NCBI GenBank assembly: GCA_008080745.1
Contig: SHMX01000012.1
Span: forward strand, 13,543-45,542
Direction of reading: 5' to 3'
DNA from: Candidatus Thorarchaeota archaeon
GTDB lineage: Archaea > Asgardarchaeota > Thorarchaeia > Thorarchaeales > Thorarchaeaceae
DNA length: 32,000 bases
Positions within the stretch are counted from its first letter, which is position 1; every line of letters starts with the position of its first letter. The position numbers and the translations under genes are program-made. Below are positions 13,533 to 23,389 of the stretch, piece after piece. Below the pieces are notes generated by a model. The model worked only from the letters and a program-made list of their open reading frames with translations. It had not been told where the DNA came from and searched no databases.

Positions 13533-14282
13533 CTAAACAGATTCTGAATCAGACCAAAGACTATCAAAGTATGCTGATGCCATTGCTGCAAATACAGGGG
13601 CTGAAGCGTAAATGCCCAAGAACTCTTCTTGCTCATTACCAGCCAACATTATTAGAGTTTCACGTCTGTCAATAACTAGACCCGCTCCAAAAACACGTGA
13701 CCGAGTACGTACTTCAAAATTCGAAGGAATGAGGTTCTTCATATCCGATGGGAGATTGGATGTGAGTAGCATAACCTTAGCTTTCACACTAAAGGCACGT
13801 TCTATTAGCTCAGAAATCTCTTCAGTGGGCATATCAAGACTGGGGAGAGATAGCAATACCTCTTCCTTTGATACTTCTAACATCTCGATAGCTTTAGCAA
13901 GAATAGAATGTCTTCCGTGTAGAAGCCAAACATCTCGTGTGGTAGCAGGTGTTTCACGTTCAAATCTAGGTTGTAATTCTTCAACAACATGTTTGCTAGC
14001 CCGTTCTAATCGTTCCTCCCATTCCAATCTAACTAGGCGCATTACCTCAGTGGGGGATTTTGCACGGTATTGTGTAGGTCTTCCTTTCCTAGTCTGGATA
14101 AACCCTTTTTCCCCAAGACGCCCTAGTACGTCATATATTCGCGAATAAGGAACCTGTGATTTTGTGCTAGTATCCGAAGCGGACATTTGACCATGATCAA
14201 CTAGTGCGAGATAAGCAGAGGTCTCGTATTCTGTGAGACCAATCTCTTTCAGTGCTTTGAGAGTAGCTTCGCTAATTGTCAA
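13533..14282 (-). CDS. TrmB-family regulator (TrmBL2-like length, no C-terminal sugar-binding extension)
   Basis: LKEIGLTEYETSAYLAL...SQVPYSRIYDVLGRLGEKGFI...GRPTQYRAKSP, then a PLD-like region with LVIDRRETL. TTG start. Confidence 0.88.
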   Translation of the reverse strand: MTISEATLKALKEIGLTEYETSAYLALVDHGQMSASDTSTKSQVPYSRIYDVLGRLGEKGFIQTRKGRPTQYRAKSPTEVMRLVRLEWEERLERASKHVVEELQPRFERETPATTRDVWLLHGRHSILAKAIEMLEVSKEEVLLSLPSLDMPTEEISELIERAFSVKAKVMLLTSNLPSDMKNLIPSNFEVRTRSRVFGAGLVIDRRETLIMLAGNEQEEFLGIYASAPVFAAMASAYFDSLWSDSESV

Positions 14283-17183: not shown

Positions 17184-17409
17184 AATCGTACTCCAAAGAA
17201 ATCAAGTCAAAATATGTCGTATCAAACAGATTAGTCTTGTGTTAATACATCATGATTGAAATAAATCAATGCTGGCGTGTCTGAAAGTAATTTATCTTGA
17301 GTTTGATAACGAGTACTTGAAGTTATGGAAGTTCTGGCATATAGTATCACAATTGAATAGGAAATATATCAACACAGCACTTAAGCGCAATGCCGTATAT
17401 TTTCTAAGC

Positions 17410-18012
17410 ATGTCAGAACCAACTGTATACCACATTCAAAAAGGTAATCTTGTCTTGATGCCAGACCCCGGAGCTTTTGGTAAAGGGGACTGCTATCTTG
17501 TCGATGCAGGTCCAAAAATCTACATCTGGATTGGGCCGAATAGCTCTGTTGATGAGAAGTTTCTTGCAGCTGCAGAAGCGGTTTTCAAAGACACAGCCAG
17601 GAAGGGTCATGCAGATATAGATCACATCGATGGAGGCAACGAACCAGAAGAATTCAAGGCACTCTTTGATGATTTTCATCTTACTGATGAGGATACCGCA
17701 GGTATTCTAAAGAAAGTGCAGATGGAAAAACACGAATACAAGCTCTGGAGAGTACATCGCGATGCAGATAACGATGAAACCTTCTTTGCAGAGGTTCCAT
17801 TAGAACGTTCTTCCTTGAGAAGCGATGATGTCTATATCTTAGATGCGTGGGAAGACATCTATGTTTGGAGAGGAAAAGATGCTACTGCCAGAGAGAAATT
17901 TGACGCAACTATTCTTGCACGACGATACGATGCAGAACGTGTGGGAACACAGGATATCGATCTAATTGAAGAAGGAGACGAACCGGAAGAGTTCCTTGAA
18001 AAAATAGTGTAA
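17410..18012 (+). CDS. Two-domain gelsolin (Asgard 2DGel-type actin regulator)
   Basis: Two gelsolin repeats: FGKGDCYLVDAGPKIYIWIGPNSSVDEK...GGNEPEEF and LRSDDVYILDAWEDIYVWRGKDATAREK...EGDEPEEF. The start is ATG 17410. TTAAG at 17381-17385 fits a leaderless promoter, and the upstream 47 codons of the listed ORF look non-coding. Confidence 0.93.
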   Translation: MSEPTVYHIQKGNLVLMPDPGAFGKGDCYLVDAGPKIYIWIGPNSSVDEKFLAAAEAVFKDTARKGHADIDHIDGGNEPEEFKALFDDFHLTDEDTAGILKKVQMEKHEYKLWRVHRDADNDETFFAEVPLERSSLRSDDVYILDAWEDIYVWRGKDATAREKFDATILARRYDAERVGTQDIDLIEEGDEPEEFLEKIV

Positions 18013-18040: not shown

Positions 18041-19474
18041 CTATACCAAACGATAATGCCCCGTTCTTGGTTCATATACTACACTTGCTAGCTTCATTTC
18101 TTCAAGAGTCTTTGCAGTTATGTGAGTTGGTACATCTGCCTCTTGGGCAATTTCTTGTAACGTCGGCCCCAATGACCTTGTAGTACCATCATCAAGTTTC
18201 CGTAGTGCACGCAAGACTCTGGTATTGAATTTATGATACTTGGAGTCCGCCCCCCATTCCTCCTCCACTTCTGCTTTTAGTTCTGTTAGCTCTAAAAATT
18301 CTTTAAGAGCAGGCTCGAGAACTCGATCCCATGCTTTTTTGATATCACCTGCATTCACCTTACTCTTCCACTTGGACCGAGCAGAAGAACGCGCAAGTTT
18401 GATAGTACTCAATGGTCTTCCTAGAGCATCTGCATCAAGAATATGTCCACGCCCTAAGGACTTGTCTGATAGGCCAAAACTATCCTTTAGCGAATCGATT
18501 TTTCCCAGCACGTGTTTTGTTGCAGCATCAATACTTCTTGAACCAATTGCTGGGGTCTGTAATTGAAATGTTATAGCGGATTTGAGAATGGGAAGCTGAA
18601 GATGAGAAGGATCGTGTGTTTCAACCCAGAAATCCTCTGTTGCCAAAGCAATTGGAACATCGGGAAGTACAGCAGTCTTTGCACCCGTCAAGGTGCTCAC
18701 AGAGACCTCCCGAAAACCTGCTGGATCTACACGATCCAAACATAATTTTCTAAGTTTGGATTTCCCAATTCGTCCAACATCAAGGCGCCAAGAACGTGGA
18801 GCATATACCTTGATTCCACTTACATTTCTATTACGACTGCCTGAGCTACGAAAAGAGGGGGGGAGTACCCGTTTCATGAATCGTAGCAGTCTATTCACTT
18901 GTTGTTTGCTAGCTATTGCTTGAATACCAGCAGTGAGTCCTCCAATAGATTCTTGGAAGGGAGGGCTAGACACATACAATTGTGCAAACACACGTTTACT
19001 TGCTTCAGCCATGCCGACATGCTCGAAGAGAAGCTCGGATATCTCCTTCAACGACAGAGGAGGTCTGATATCATCTAAAAACTCCATCTGCTCAATAGAA
19101 ACAGAGTCAGCAGTGAATGCACGCACAGTTTCCTGTTTTCGCGCTAAAACTCTGGGAACCGCAATACTCCGGCCCTCAACCTCAACAAAAGATCCCTCTG
19201 GTGGAAGAGATTGGTCATCCTTAAACTGAATGAAAGCGCCTTCTAATATCCAAGGGCTGGGTGTAAGCAATATTAGAGATGAATCGCGAGTATAGTGTAC
19301 AAAGCCACGATGACGAAATCTCCTTCCACTCATCCTATGATGAAAGTCTCTTTGCAATTGCATCTCCCAAGCAGTCAGTTCAGCACCAAACTGCCGATCA
19401 AAGACATCACTTGATGCAAAAGCATCACCAAGCCGGTCTCTTGATAATCCATGACGTTCATAGATGTCATCCAT
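18041..19474 (-). CDS. MCM-derived protein lacking ATPase motifs (OB fold, degenerate AAA+, C-terminal winged helix); MCM-BP-like candidate
   Basis: PEGSFVEVEG (OB-type), LLRFMKRVLPPSF (post-Walker-A helix), GRPLSTIKLARSSAR...KVNAGDIKKAW (sensor-2/lid-like) and LEEMKLASVVYEPRTGHYRLV (MCM-type C-terminal WH). No GxxGxxKS, DExD, SRFD or Zn-finger Cys pairs. Start is ATG 19474 after a GGTGG site overlapping the MTase stop. Confidence 0.7.
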   Translation of the reverse strand: MDDIYERHGLSRDRLGDAFASSDVFDRQFGAELTAWEMQLQRDFHHRMSGRRFRHRGFVHYTRDSSLILLTPSPWILEGAFIQFKDDQSLPPEGSFVEVEGRSIAVPRVLARKQETVRAFTADSVSIEQMEFLDDIRPPLSLKEISELLFEHVGMAEASKRVFAQLYVSSPPFQESIGGLTAGIQAIASKQQVNRLLRFMKRVLPPSFRSSGSRNRNVSGIKVYAPRSWRLDVGRIGKSKLRKLCLDRVDPAGFREVSVSTLTGAKTAVLPDVPIALATEDFWVETHDPSHLQLPILKSAITFQLQTPAIGSRSIDAATKHVLGKIDSLKDSFGLSDKSLGRGHILDADALGRPLSTIKLARSSARSKWKSKVNAGDIKKAWDRVLEPALKEFLELTELKAEVEEEWGADSKYHKFNTRVLRALRKLDDGTTRSLGPTLQEIAQEADVPTHITAKTLEEMKLASVVYEPRTGHYRLV

Positions 19475-19488
19475 TAAGGCCAACCACC

Positions 19489-20463
19489 TTAGCTTTCTTC
19501 ATCATGCTTTTGCTCCCGTTTCAAGTATTCATTGTACGCACGAGGATATAACTCTGCCAACTCCTCAATGGTGGGAAGTCTTTCCGTATAGGGAATATAG
19601 TCCGAACCGAGCTGAGATGCCCTCAGACCCTGATCTATTATAGGCTGTAACAACGCGTTCTGCTCAAAACCAAGAAAATGACGGAAACTTCTTTTTGCAG
19701 CTATAGCCGTCGTTCCATTCCCCATAAATGGATCTAGCACTATTGAACCAGGGCGTGAAGCGAAATCAATGCACCTCATGACTATTTCAAGAGGTAATTT
19801 GGTACTGTTCTTTGCACGACCTGGATGATAGCGTCTATTGATTAGCCACACATCCTCCGTATAGTGTTCAATCCGGTTGAAATAATACTCCTTGGGGTCT
19901 TTGACTAAAAACAGAAGGTGGTAATGACTGGTCACAAACTTCCGTTTGGTAAACACACCAAAAGGATAGTTCCAGATAATGTGGTTTATAGTTTCAAGAC
20001 CAGCTTCACGTGCACCTCTAAGAACGGCTTCGAGATTAGTCCACCCACTGAAGATGAATACCGACCCATGATCACAGAGGATACGGGGTAGTTCTGCAAT
20101 CCAGGAGGTCGTGAATTCGGAATAAGTCACCTCGGGTTCTTCATAACCATCAACGACAAGCGATTCGTCACGATTATACATTCCACTCTTGCCATCAAAA
20201 TCAATTCCAAAAGGTGGGTCAGCAATGATGAGGTCAATGGTGTTTTCTTGGATATTTCTCATTCCCTTAATGCAATCCGTAAAATAAACAGTGTCTACAG
20301 CACAACCAACTGTTGAGAGGTCTCGAGAATCATAAAGATCCTGAGCCTCTGCAACAGTCCAGTCCTCATCAGGTTGAAAATAAAATTCTGCTAGATGAGG
20401 AATATACTTACGAGTTCTTTTGGGTTCATCTTCGCATCCTGAAGATTCTGAACTCGAGGTCAT
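19489..20463 (-). CDS. Orphan beta-class N4-cytosine/N6-adenine DNA methyltransferase
   Basis: Catalytic motif IV DLIIADPPF precedes SAM-binding motif I IVLDPFMGNGTT; also TKLPLEIVMRCI and FLGFE. No restriction endonuclease gene is adjacent. Confidence 0.93.
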   Translation of the reverse strand: MTSSSESSGCEDEPKRTRKYIPHLAEFYFQPDEDWTVAEAQDLYDSRDLSTVGCAVDTVYFTDCIKGMRNIQENTIDLIIADPPFGIDFDGKSGMYNRDESLVVDGYEEPEVTYSEFTTSWIAELPRILCDHGSVFIFSGWTNLEAVLRGAREAGLETINHIIWNYPFGVFTKRKFVTSHYHLLFLVKDPKEYYFNRIEHYTEDVWLINRRYHPGRAKNSTKLPLEIVMRCIDFASRPGSIVLDPFMGNGTTAIAAKRSFRHFLGFEQNALLQPIIDQGLRASQLGSDYIPYTERLPTIEELAELYPRAYNEYLKREQKHDEES

Positions 20464-20520
20464 GGTAGGTTCTTGAACTAATATGGAAACTAAGCTCTTA
20501 AACCATATGGGAAAATGATC

Positions 20521-20664
20521 TTAGAAATCCTCTCCTATTTTTTTGAGTGTGTTTTCTGTGACTTCTTTGCAGCCTTCTACAAAGGCACAGTTAAGACATT
20601 GAATGTCCTTTTCACTAAAAGATCCAAAACAGTTCGGGAGTTTTTCTGCAGTTGCATCGAGCAA
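20521..20664 (-). CDS. Unannotated 47-aa four-cysteine mini-protein (Zn or Fe-S binding)
   Basis: TTG start 6 nt after a GAGGG(A) site. Translation: MLDATAEKLPNCFGSFSEKDIQCLNCAFVEGCKEVTENTLKKIGEDF*, with C-X10-C-X2-C-X5-C. It occupies an otherwise empty intergenic gap on the same strand as its neighbours. Confidence 0.7.
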   Translation of the reverse strand: MLDATAEKLPNCFGSFSEKDIQCLNCAFVEGCKEVTENTLKKIGEDF

Positions 20665-20729: not shown

Positions 20730-21806
20730 CTAGAGAAGTTCTGATGGATCCACTCCACGAGATTCTGCCTTTTGTGTCATCCAGTCAATCATATTCTCAG
20801 GGGGTCGAGTTCGTTCGCCACGTTCTACAAGACTCAATGCTCCTTCAGGACAAGTGATTCCACACACACCACAACCAATACACCGTTCGTGGTCAATCTC
20901 AGCAGCTTCATTAACGGTTATCGCATCTAGCTGACATCGATCAATACATATCCCGCAGGCGGAGCACAAATCACTATCAACACAAGCAACAAAATCAGAC
21001 TTGACTAATACATGAGGCTGGTTGAACTCAGAGATTCCCCGAAGGATTCCACAACAACATGTGCAACAATTACAAATGTAGTAGTGTTTCTCAACAATAT
21101 TCATAGCACAATGAACCAATCCTGACTCCTCTGCATTATGAAGAATTTCCAGAGCCTCTGCTTTAGTGATTACTCGATCCAATTCGCTATTATCAAACTC
21201 GTTTTCAGATTTTGGCGACATGACCAGACAGACTGTACTTGGGTAATCGCATGTTTTTCCTAAGGATTCCTGCTGTTTTTTACAAATGCATTCTCGTACT
21301 CCCCAAGACTTCGCACGCTTCACCATCTCTTCAGCAGTCTCATATGGATAAATCTCCAAATTGGTTTGAATTGTCTTATTGACTGGTATGACTCTGAAAA
21401 TCGGAGGTTCTGTTGTGAAAATACCAAAACCACGGTTCTCACGATAATATTCCTCAAAGACAGTTGCAAGTTCTTCGTCCATCCGTCCTAATTGCTCCTC
21501 ATATATACCCACAACAAAAGGAATCAAAGCATAGCGTCTACCAGAGCTAGATTGCCATGCACGAATCTGACCTTTTGATGACATGGTTTCTAGTAGAGGC
21601 TCTAGGTAATCAGACGACTTATCAAGACGAGATGCCATTTCTTCCAGAGTTTCACCGCGAAGTTTCATCCTGCTAGCTAGAGCAGCCTCTTCTGGCTCGA
21701 AAATGTGTTTCAAAAGACGAATATGAGAACCACTTGGAGTGGGAGAAAACCCCTGTGGAATAGTATTCAACACCTCAGCCAATTTTTCATAAGCATCCTC
21801 TGGCAT
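20730..21806 (-). CDS. wHTH-containing multi-cluster Fe-S protein with a C-terminal 2x[4Fe-4S] ferredoxin domain
   Basis: N-terminal wHTH-like ETLEEMASRLDKSSDYLEPLLETMSSKGQI; Cys-rich core CICKK...C...VCL, GLVHC, ICNCCTCCCG; ferredoxin motifs CSACGICIDRC and CIGCGVCGITCP. Start placed at ATG 21806. Confidence 0.85.
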   Translation of the reverse strand: MPEDAYEKLAEVLNTIPQGFSPTPSGSHIRLLKHIFEPEEAALASRMKLRGETLEEMASRLDKSSDYLEPLLETMSSKGQIRAWQSSSGRRYALIPFVVGIYEEQLGRMDEELATVFEEYYRENRGFGIFTTEPPIFRVIPVNKTIQTNLEIYPYETAEEMVKRAKSWGVRECICKKQQESLGKTCDYPSTVCLVMSPKSENEFDNSELDRVITKAEALEILHNAEESGLVHCAMNIVEKHYYICNCCTCCCGILRGISEFNQPHVLVKSDFVACVDSDLCSACGICIDRCQLDAITVNEAAEIDHERCIGCGVCGITCPEGALSLVERGERTRPPENMIDWMTQKAESRGVDPSELL

Positions 21807-21820
21807 GATAACCACCAAAT

Positions 21821-23158
21821 TCATTCCTGTGAACATTCAAGTGTTATTGACACATGTCTAAGTTCTTCATTGACAGTAGAAACTGTTTCCTCACAAGATT
21901 GTCCTTTGCCTAGGAGGACATGTGCAAGACACATCTGGAAAGGAGGTAGGAATGGAACATTACTAGTTTCCAAAATTTCGTTATAGGTACTTCGAATTTT
22001 TGAGTCTTTGAGATAAGTTTCCATCTGATGAAGCGTGGTCTTGTTCTCCAATAGCATATTCATGATTTTCTCTAAGAAAACATCACGAGGAACTTTGACC
22101 GATGAACCAAACAAATTGCTCACATTTGCTTCAAACCAACTACGGACCTTGTCTAGACTGCAATAAGGAAGAATTGTTGGTGACTGACTTTCATCAGAGG
22201 GTATAACGCGAATGTATCCTCGCTTATCAGCCGAGAGAAGAAAGTCAGCTAGCTTGGGATAGCCAATTGTTTCAACATCTAGTCCCTGTTCCTTCAGTTC
22301 CTTGTTGATTACCGCTAAAGTGGTAGGTTCATTTTGTTGAACTTTATCCTCTACTACGGACACAAGGAGAGAGAATGCATCCTGTACATCTTCAGAGAGT
22401 TTCGTAGTATCTTCAGGAACTTCATCAGAGATAGTTATGATGGTAGATGGAAGCTCTCCTTCTTGTTTAATATAACCCATAGATTCTGCCCAATCTAAGA
22501 ACGAAGACCAAGTAGGAAATCCAAGTTGTCTTTCATTGAAAGTTGGATTGAGTGATCGCATGACATGCTTCACATGACCAATACCAGGTTTATTCCCGGC
22601 ATCTAGAATAGCCTGAACCGCCTCACGTAGCCGCACAGCTGCGATACGACGAGATTCGTCGGAACTGGTAAACAGACGTTCACAGTCAGCAGGATCTGAA
22701 CAATCCAAGTCCGTAGGACGAAATGAATGGATATCGGAATAACGATTTGCCAATTCAGACATCTCAGAGGAGGTTATAATGGGATTGCTGATAATCCAGA
22801 GCTGGTTGCCCTGTTCTCGTAAAGCACCAGCTAGTAGTTTGAAATCTCCATCTCCTGTGACCATAACATAGCAATTGACTTCGGGATATCGACCAAGATG
22901 CTCAAGTATGTAGGATGCCATCTTATAGTCCGCTGCGTTATCTTTCGAATCAGGTACATGGATGAGATCATATCCCAAGTCATAGAGCTCTTCTGCCATT
23001 CTCCGTCGTGTATCCCAATCCGCAAATGCATATGCTTTGATAACCTTTCCAGCATCATGGATAGTTTTTGTCATCGCTTCATGTGTGGAGTAGATATCAT
23101 GCACATTCTCTAGATCCCAGAATATTGAGATATGAGGGGCATTCTCTTCCGATGTCAT
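21821..23158 (-). CDS. NYN (PIN-like) ribonuclease with two OST-HTH/LOTUS domains
   Basis: NYN acidic motifs IFWDLEN, NAAD and VTGDGDF..L...LR..G. LOTUS-like segments GHVKHVMRSLNPTFNERQLGFPTWSSFL and LAVINKELKEQGLDVETIGYPKLADFL. TTTATA at about -30 on the minus strand. Confidence 0.85.
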   Translation of the reverse strand: MTSEENAPHISIFWDLENVHDIYSTHEAMTKTIHDAGKVIKAYAFADWDTRRRMAEELYDLGYDLIHVPDSKDNAADYKMASYILEHLGRYPEVNCYVMVTGDGDFKLLAGALREQGNQLWIISNPIITSSEMSELANRYSDIHSFRPTDLDCSDPADCERLFTSSDESRRIAAVRLREAVQAILDAGNKPGIGHVKHVMRSLNPTFNERQLGFPTWSSFLDWAESMGYIKQEGELPSTIITISDEVPEDTTKLSEDVQDAFSLLVSVVEDKVQQNEPTTLAVINKELKEQGLDVETIGYPKLADFLLSADKRGYIRVIPSDESQSPTILPYCSLDKVRSWFEANVSNLFGSSVKVPRDVFLEKIMNMLLENKTTLHQMETYLKDSKIRSTYNEILETSNVPFLPPFQMCLAHVLLGKGQSCEETVSTVNEELRHVSITLECSQE

Positions 23159-23389
23159 GGATGTCACCAATTAACTTGTTAGAAATGTTGTCAACCTATA
23201 AAAATTAGCAGCAATTACACAATAAACCGAATTAGAAGAGATATCTCCAAAATGCACCAAACGAAAGGCGGAGCGTTCATTTTACGCTATAGATCTCCTA
23301 AAGGAAAGGGGGTCGCGGGCGTGAGTGAATATATCTGATATAGAATATATAGCATCAGGGATTCTTGATGAAGTAAGATAGGTAAGGAA

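Follow-up and report, generated by a model that had tools for sequence, protein, structure and literature searches.

A methyltransferase gene and a predicted ATPase-dead MCM paralogue share an operon-like neighbourhood in Thorarchaeia

In the genome of a Candidatus Thorarchaeota archaeon (assembly GCA_008080745.1, contig SHMX01000012.1), a gene for a DNA methyltransferase (MTase) is followed at once by a gene for a protein that resembles MCM and carries none of the ATPase motifs of that family. Both lie on the minus strand of a stretch of 32,000 nucleotides (positions 13,543 to 45,542 of the contig), which was analysed as a whole and is called the window here. The locus raises the question of whether the two genes form a dedicated system, as an original prediction made from the sequence had proposed when it described a two- or three-gene module for methylation-linked replication control or defence, or whether they are neighbours that work apart. 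The answer we favour, with a moderate degree of confidence, is that the MTase is an apparent orphan, a beta-class enzyme of the CcrM/HinfI-like PF01555 group, and that it and the MCM-like protein are the products of two separately functioning chromosomal housekeeping genes, which share a transcript in most Thorarchaeia and constitute no dedicated system. The gene pair as such is ordinary, being an operon-like neighbourhood and not a new system. The features on which the argument turns are as follows:

19489–20463, minus strand: beta-class N6-adenine/N4-cytosine DNA MTase of 324 aa, the 'A-type' paralogue, with a PF01555 match
19484–19489, minus strand: AGGTGG, a Shine–Dalgarno-like sequence 9–10 nt before the ATG at 19474, as read from the sequence
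18041–19474, minus strand: MCM paralogue of 477 aa plus stop, predicted to be ATPase-dead, with no Zn finger and no subdomain A

Linkage of the two genes across Thorarchaeia

At the junction, the stop codon of the MTase gene (TAA, 19491–19489) runs straight into the GGTGG ribosome-binding site of the MCM-like gene (19488–19484), just as the original prediction had read it, and AGGTG, which includes the last A of the MTase stop, matches the archaeal anti-Shine–Dalgarno sequence. A 14-nt spacer separates the stop from the ATG of the MCM-like gene at 19474. An alternative in-frame TTG is present at 19483; the ATG is more likely to be used, given that the database record and the orthologous proteins measure 477–479 aa. 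So compact a succession of stop, ribosome-binding site and start makes co-transcription probable and translational coupling possible. By itself it is ordinary operon architecture and holds no unusual signal.

A search for the MCM-like gene succeeded in 86 of the 87 species genomes of Thorarchaeia; the gene is single-copy, constant in length and 49–84% identical. We compared the coordinates of the two genes in these 86 genomes and inspected 37 of the loci, including all 12 that lack an MTase. The arrangements fall into four classes:

65 genomes, ten genera: MTase directly upstream of the MCM-like gene on the same strand
4 genomes: an unrelated gene of ~1.25–1.3 kb between the MTase and the MCM-like gene
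12 genomes, six genera (g4, g5, part of g6, g7, g8, g9): no MTase at the MCM-like locus
5 genomes: contig ends at the locus and the arrangement is not assessable, which leaves 81 assessable genomes

Co-transcription is accordingly expected in most Thorarchaeia, since the MTase gene occupies the slot directly upstream. At ten other linked junctions that we read at the level of open reading frames (ORFs), the gap between the two genes ranges from −8 to +35 nt. The inserted gene differs between lineages, being an oligopeptide-type ABC ATPase gene on the same strand in genus g6 and, in two g11 genomes, a 336-aa ORF on the opposite strand with no Pfam match (L056:6502–7623, L074:5999–7120 and L057:6653–7663). 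At the 12 MTase-less loci, the gene directly preceding the MCM-like gene is mostly that of an Fe-S (Fer4) protein (9/12), with an NYN gene plus a mini-ORF at one locus and an unrelated gene at the remaining two. On the tree of the MCM-like protein the MTase-less genomes need at least five changes, and their grouping as a single clade is rejected by an approximately unbiased (AU) test (p 2e-5), for which the gene tree was used and the group was named after the first tree had been seen. Loss or displacement of the linked MTase leaves the MCM-like gene in place, and the function of that gene therefore needs no MTase neighbour in cis.

Outside the Thorarchaeia family the linkage disappears. At 18 distinct loci of distant MCM-like homologues (Odinarchaeota, Methanomethylicia, other Asgard and metagenomic contigs), none has a PF01555 neighbour; at one Methanomethylicia locus a DUF1156-type MTase lies three genes away on the other strand. 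Of the conservation across Asgard genomes that would be expected of a dedicated pair, the part within Thorarchaeia stands, with linkage in 65 of the 81 assessable genomes, and the part outside the family does not, with linkage at 0 of 18 loci. The picture of an obligate, self-contained two-gene system falls on these same counts, together with the 12 loci without an MTase and the four at which the genes are split.

The pair is also embedded in a larger conserved block of about ten genes, which runs NYN-LOTUS, Fe-S, the MTase where present, MCM-like, gelsolin, M20 peptidase, luciferase-like oxidoreductase (LLM) and Ham1, and which is present at the 37 inspected Thorarchaeia loci. The gelsolin gene is the constant downstream neighbour of the MCM-like gene in every inspected locus that extends past its 3' end. 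As the whole neighbourhood is conserved, the adjacency of MTase and MCM-like gene does not stand out from that of the remaining block members; adjacency beyond general synteny, taken as the test for a two-gene functional module, was not found. In the window the immediate members of the block are:

21821–23170, minus strand: NYN + OST-HTH/LOTUS protein, by domain match
20730–21836, minus strand: 4Fe-4S dicluster (Fer4) protein, a member of the upstream part of the block, by domain match
17269–18012, plus strand: gelsolin-repeat protein, convergent with the MCM-like gene across a 28-nt gap, by domain match

The NYN-LOTUS protein and the gelsolin-repeat protein, the latter of eukaryotic-signature type, accompany the MCM-like gene as constant parts of this block.

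The methyltransferase and its paralogues

The window MTase matches PF01555 (N6_N4_Mtase) with an E-value of 2e-32 and 113.4 bits, against a gathering cut-off of 26.7. Its motif IV (DPPF, residues 82–85) precedes motif I (DPFMGNG, residues 244–250), as in the beta class, and an alignment of 24 orthologues and paralogues shows no variation in either motif, so that the class originally assigned to the enzyme is upheld. The closest solved structure is CcrM (6pbd, E 1e-24). The NCBIfam CcrM equivalog model NF050803 also hits the protein (1.3e-27), at 96.6 bits and far below its cut-off of 830. With PADLOC the best model is MTase_II (2e-53), and the orphan-MTase model is weaker (2e-26). The enzyme shares its Pfam family, the order of motif IV before motif I and a DPPF/Y-type motif IV with CcrM of Caulobacter, M.HinfI, M.RsrI and M.MboIIA; it differs from CcrM in lacking the CcrM C-terminal domain and in having N- and C-terminal extensions of its own. 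DPPF, as opposed to SPP[YF], suggests N6-adenine specificity in the PF01555 family. The MTase has the look of an orphan: both flanking genes have non-nuclease identities and no endonuclease domain was found among the ORFs from 9.8 to 30.3 kb, although restriction enzymes are often unrecognisable by sequence and one could be encoded elsewhere in the genome.

MTases that match the window protein are present in all 87 Thorarchaeia species genomes, and they are of two kinds. The window enzyme, which lies at the MCM-like locus (A-type), carries a lineage-specific N-terminal motif, YIPHLAEFYF, and a C-terminal tail of ~25 residues, ERLP.IEELA..YPRAY.EYL; linked A-type MTases have such a tail in common. 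MTases encoded at other sites group on the tree as a paralogue clade of their own (B-type), with support of 95/99, and in the alignment their C-terminal tail differs from that of the A-type; the central regions of the two types are highly similar. The 12 genomes without a linked MTase hold only the B-type elsewhere, and two genomes, G005 and G024, carry both. Genomes with the A-type only, the B-type only or both offer a natural experiment for the comparison of methylomes.

Two observations on individual genomes may be added. In G024 (C15:113768–116198) the linked MTase and the MCM-like gene each appear to be split into two frames, in a genome that has a B-type MTase at another site; either the pair is decaying or the assembly may contain errors. 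The B-type MTase of genera g9 and g4 comes last in a string of genes for TusA, DsrE, NifS (cysteine desulfurase), NifU and a GNAT protein (L045:5982–9863; L047; L059), which is a surprising context for a DNA methyltransferase, and in g9 two large FtsX-like permease genes come after it.

The MCM-like protein has the MCM fold and lacks the ATPase motifs

Within the MCM-like gene, three regions can be told apart:

19094–19342, minus strand: OB-fold domain, residues ~45–127, from the strand pattern of the model and VIA-align
18425–19072, minus strand: degenerate AAA+ alpha/beta core, residues ~135–350, from the model and the alignment
18044–18424, minus strand: MCM-type AAA-lid helices (residues 351–396) and C-terminal winged helix (residues 398–477), from profile matches

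Taken singly, the protein matches no Pfam family at E ≤ 0.01 and no NCBIfam model. When a profile of 36 family members is compared with the Protein Data Bank (PDB), the lid and winged helix match SsoMCM of S. solfataricus (4fdg, E 6e-7) and the MCM chain in 8x7t (E 1.6e-6), and hhalign against 13 true Asgard MCMs returns a probability of 95.6 and an E-value of 1e-8 over the same stretch. The Pfam families MCM_WH_arc, MCM_C and MCM_lid match individual members. Local profile–profile alignment finds homology in the lid and winged helix only, and the relation of the AAA+ core rests on the predicted fold. The AlphaFold (AF2) model (pLDDT 83, pTM 0.79) places an OB fold, an alpha/beta core, lid helices and a winged helix in that order, and its best 50 Foldseek matches in the PDB are all MCM subunits (E ~1e-12). 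VIA-align, which is independent of Foldseek, gives Z-scores of 16–17 to MCMs over 231–297 residues; these alignments begin at model residues 43–50 and cover the MCM N-terminal tier, and the next AAA+ folds are RavA (Z 11), the putative ATPase 2r44 (Z 10) and BchI (Z 9). Among AFDB clusters, the first is an uncharacterised 450-aa protein (TM 0.62), followed by MCMs, Cdc46/Mcm-type DNA helicases or unnamed entries. The predicted model thus confirms an overall MCM fold, with an OB N-terminal tier, an AAA+ core of the pre-sensor-1/helix-2-insert clade and a lid, and the profile and fold matches bear out the view that the protein is an MCM by descent.

The alignment shows where the family has gone its own way. 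Invariant residues are G57, G101, P171, G178, G179, E256 and R366. The motif SSP..(6)..GG (S169, P171, G178, G179) sits where the pre-beta1 loop and P-loop of MCM lie, the core also carries the invariant E256 within an E.S.S motif and a nearly invariant D272, and R366 belongs to the lid motif G.PLS...A.S.AR. The winged helix ends with the sequence VYEPRTGHYRLV.

At the sites of catalysis, the 13 true Asgard MCMs all have a Walker B (IDE/VDE) and SRFD, and their GDPG..KS P-loop columns are invariant. None of the 36 MCM-like members has an [AG]xxxxGK[ST] P-loop at a shared position, nor were a conserved hhhD[DE] Walker B or an SRFD arginine finger found in them, and PF00493 is not among their Pfam hits. 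In a forced global profile alignment, to be read as tentative and of low confidence, the Walker A Lys/Ser correspond to V193/N194, the Walker B DE stands opposite a gap and the arginine finger is aligned with P271. Helical subdomain A is missing from the window protein, and there is no Zn finger (subdomain B) because the whole protein has a single Cys; no Cys is invariant in the family alignment. Having no Walker A, Walker B, SRFD or PF00493 match, the MCM-like protein therefore cannot be a motor. The missing motifs show that canonical ATP binding or hydrolysis is impossible for a protein of this sequence, and the ATPase-dead state that had been claimed for the window protein is found, by these motifs, in all 36 members.

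Two known proteins invite comparison. Archaeal MCM (4fdg; P. furiosus 4r7z; 8x7t; the organism's own MCM) shares the domain order of OB, AAA+ with pre-sensor-1 and helix-2-insert, lid and winged helix; the MCM-like protein is ~210 residues shorter and lacks subdomain A, the Zn finger, Walker A and B, and SRFD. Methanopyrus kandleri MCM2 (3f8t; VIA-align Z 15.9 over 289 residues) is likewise an MCM-fold homologue that coexists with a true MCM, and it is reportedly regarded as catalytically inactive. We detected no sequence-level relation to it, however, and the Thorarchaeia family differs from it in having its own motifs (SSP..GG, E.S.S, SD.P and an N-terminal R....G.E....E) and in being spread over several archaeal phyla.

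Distribution of the MCM-like family and its distant neighbourhoods

In database searches 219 clusters match the MCM-like protein at E ≤ 0.001. The best 120 of these are 473–512 aa long, and all the named ones are 'hypothetical protein' from Thorarchaeota or related Asgard archaea. Exhaustive searching adds distant relatives of 446–491 aa with 20–33% identity, some of them named Odinarchaeota or Methanomethylicia. Among 201 sampled Asgard genomes, full-length homologues occur in 43 of 43 members of the Thorarchaeia family, the window genome not counted, and in only six genomes outside it; the other hits are the lid-plus-winged-helix stretch of true MCMs or small winged-helix proteins. The family is unannotated; within Thorarchaeia it is universal, and in Odinarchaeota, Methanomethylicia and other archaea its occurrence is scattered. 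A literature search for an inactivated MCM in Asgard archaea or Thorarchaeota returned nothing relevant, though the family may still have been described.

The window genome has exactly one true MCM (688 aa). It is encoded on contig C2, ~4 kb and ~34 kb from two Orc1/Cdc6 genes (about 402.7–442.4 kb), an area that is likely the origin region; the MTase and MCM-like pair is on contig C12. The surroundings of some distant homologues are of related interest. In a metagenome-assembled genome from Methanomethylicia (L040:4810–8788) the homologue is flanked by a long intergenic gap on either side, ~790 bp up to Cren7 at one end and ~550 bp up to Orc1/Cdc6, followed by TFIIB, at the other, and its location could be origin-proximal. 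At a second locus (L084:1694–6458), genes for the small and large subunits of RFC lie 1–3 kb upstream in divergent orientation. Other loci of distant homologues contain Mre11-Rad50, UvrD with HhH-GPD, and a faint Exo5-like match. Such replication and repair neighbours are suggestive, if anecdotal, of a role of the family in DNA metabolism.

These data also bear on a narrower proposal, in which the protein would be a partner of the true MCM, comparable to MCM-BP or to a 'seventh subunit', and would serve as chaperone, ring cap or loader adaptor with the MTase being irrelevant. The retained MCM fold, with its ring-forming AAA+ shell, lid and winged helix, is in keeping with such a role, as are the coexistence with exactly one true MCM and the Orc1/Cdc6 and RFC genes beside distant homologues; a language-model feature search also lists the eukaryotic MCM_bind cluster (0.83), which is to be taken as a lead only. 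Against this, PF09739 is not among the Pfam hits of the 36 members, and the N-terminal subdomains A and B, the builders of MCM double hexamers, are missing. We consider the proposal unlikely as formulated. It is compatible with the explanation that we favour, which it refines and does not compete with.

Separate functions or a functional pair

On the explanation that we favour, the MTase would methylate the host genome. The MCM-like paralogue, inherited vertically and retaining an OB fold, a P-loop-less AAA+ shell, lid and winged helix, would most likely act in replication or repair as a non-catalytic scaffold that binds DNA or associates with MCM. Their shared transcript would give the two proteins a common timing of expression at most.

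The contrary view is that the two proteins work together, the MCM-like protein reading the mark set by the MTase or recruiting the MTase to forks or origins, so that methylation would be coupled to replication. Conceptually this agrees with Dam/SeqA and with CcrM/GcrA/DnaA, where an orphan MTase is matched with a DNA-binding reader; in the present case homology to SeqA or GcrA is lacking, and linkage of the two genes is not obligate. The operon-like junctions in 65 genomes of 10 genera (looser in an eleventh genus, g6), the distinct tail of the A-type MTases, the universality of both gene families in the class and the replication and repair genes beside some distant MCM-like homologues all speak for cooperation. 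It is opposed by the repeated loss or displacement of the linked MTase with retention of the MCM-like gene, by unrelated inserts that split the genes, one of them on the opposite strand, and by the 18 loci outside the family that have no MTase neighbour. The single sampled genome of a sister family (G001) has a relative of the MTase and no MCM-like gene was found there, and the window pair lies on a contig other than that of the mcm/orc1 region. On balance we regard a functional pair as rather unlikely.

A bolder version of this idea, which we judge very unlikely, would make of a CcrM-like orphan adenine MTase and a motor-less MCM a device for the epigenetic licensing of replication in Thorarchaeia. 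The OB fold and winged helix of the MCM-like protein would tell methylated from newly replicated DNA and gate the loading or re-loading of the true MCM, the tail of the A-type MTase would dock on the MCM-like protein, and lineages without a linked copy would use the B-type in trans. If true, archaea would have yielded their first case of replication control coupled to methylation, and it would lie in the lineage closest to eukaryotes.

Several points do weigh against the two genes functioning separately. Junctions as tight as those measured at the ten other linked loci are often seen for proteins that act together, and the C-terminal tail of the A-type MTase, which is missing from the B clade, might serve for docking. 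No assessable genome is without an MTase of the A- or B-type, and the central regions of the two are highly similar, so loss of the A-type need not remove the methyl mark, and MTase and MCM-like protein may be functionally linked in trans. Finally, the scaffold role in replication or repair that we propose leans on a predicted fold and on anecdotal neighbourhoods.

The MCM-like protein has a wider interest. Eukaryotic regulatory layers around MCM2-7 are built from non-catalytic paralogues of replication ATPases, as in MCM-BP and the inactive sites of the heterohexamer, so that a case from Asgard archaea gives a useful way into the question of how these layers come about.

The locus compared with defence systems

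An MTase beside an MCM-like protein also recalls defence, and the original prediction had allowed that the pair might block the replication of unmethylated invaders. In such a module, which would resemble BREX or an unconventional restriction-modification system, the MTase would mark self DNA. The MTase of type I BREX is accompanied by BrxL, an AAA+ protein that has been likened to MCM, and in the window too an MTase is encoded near an MCM-resembling protein of the AAA+ fold. PADLOC type II MTase models match the MTase, but they match any PF01555 enzyme. The likeness to Type I BREX goes no further: PglZ, BrxA/B/C and a Lon domain are absent here, the MTase is a small beta-class enzyme and not PglX, and the MCM-like protein is predicted to be ATPase-dead and is universal and vertically inherited. 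BrxL, in contrast, is an active ATPase with a Lon-like domain. PglZ (PF08665) was not found in the window genome, which is 98% complete, while control genomes gave hits, and the MCM-like, mini-ORF and Fe-S proteins are all without a PADLOC match, in agreement with the original statement that no other brx genes are present.

The genomic setting points the same way. Defence systems are usually patchy and sited in islands. The MCM-like gene is single-copy and universal, and is inherited vertically within a housekeeping block. The G+C content is flat across the window (0.40–0.47), with no compositional island, and a search of the stretch from 9.8 to 30.3 kb found no domain of an integrase, a transposase or an endonuclease. 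The earlier remark that no nuclease, integrase or transposase lies nearby is therefore right in these respects and needs amending in one, since the NYN protein at 21821–23170 has a PIN-like RNase domain; this RNA-type nuclease domain, fused to LOTUS domains, is no restriction enzyme. Taking together the missing PglZ, the lack of a PADLOC match for the MCM-like protein, the uniform G+C and the vertical inheritance, we find a defence module exceedingly improbable. A mobile island was also considered and rejected on the uniform G+C and the vertically inherited block, and a restriction-enzyme identity for the MCM-like protein is ruled out by its MCM fold together with the lack of a nuclease domain. 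Recognising the MTase as a dispensable neighbour guards against the locus being wrongly classed with defence or restriction-modification systems.

The mini-ORF and further observations

A four-Cys mini-gene had been noted just upstream of the MTase gene as a possible third member of the module, and the ORF is indeed there:

20521–20664, minus strand: 47-aa four-Cys mini-ORF with a TTG start, GAGGG 6 nt upstream and the pattern C-x10-C-x2-C-x5-C

With the window sequence as query, the mini-ORF was found in 3 of 87 genomes, on which count its membership in the module, and with it a three-gene system, has to be given up. It matches nothing in Pfam, NCBIfam or PADLOC. The protein is conserved in the congeneric G026 (83% identity) and in G008 (49%, with all four Cys kept), and the C-terminal motif T..TL.K.GED is kept between the two genera. 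Homologues (47–50 aa across the set) lie at L046:4704–4856 and L068:4792–4935, both on the plus strand. In G008 the mini-ORF is the gene next upstream of the MCM-like gene, and neither an MTase nor an Fe-S gene is present there. It is probably a real small protein, and it is not a constant partner of the MTase and MCM-like pair.

One further observation concerns the true MCMs. Many Asgard MCM genes show split PF00493 matches within open frames of 1000–2000 aa (L024–L033 and others), and these are likely to be inteins inside the AAA+ domain.

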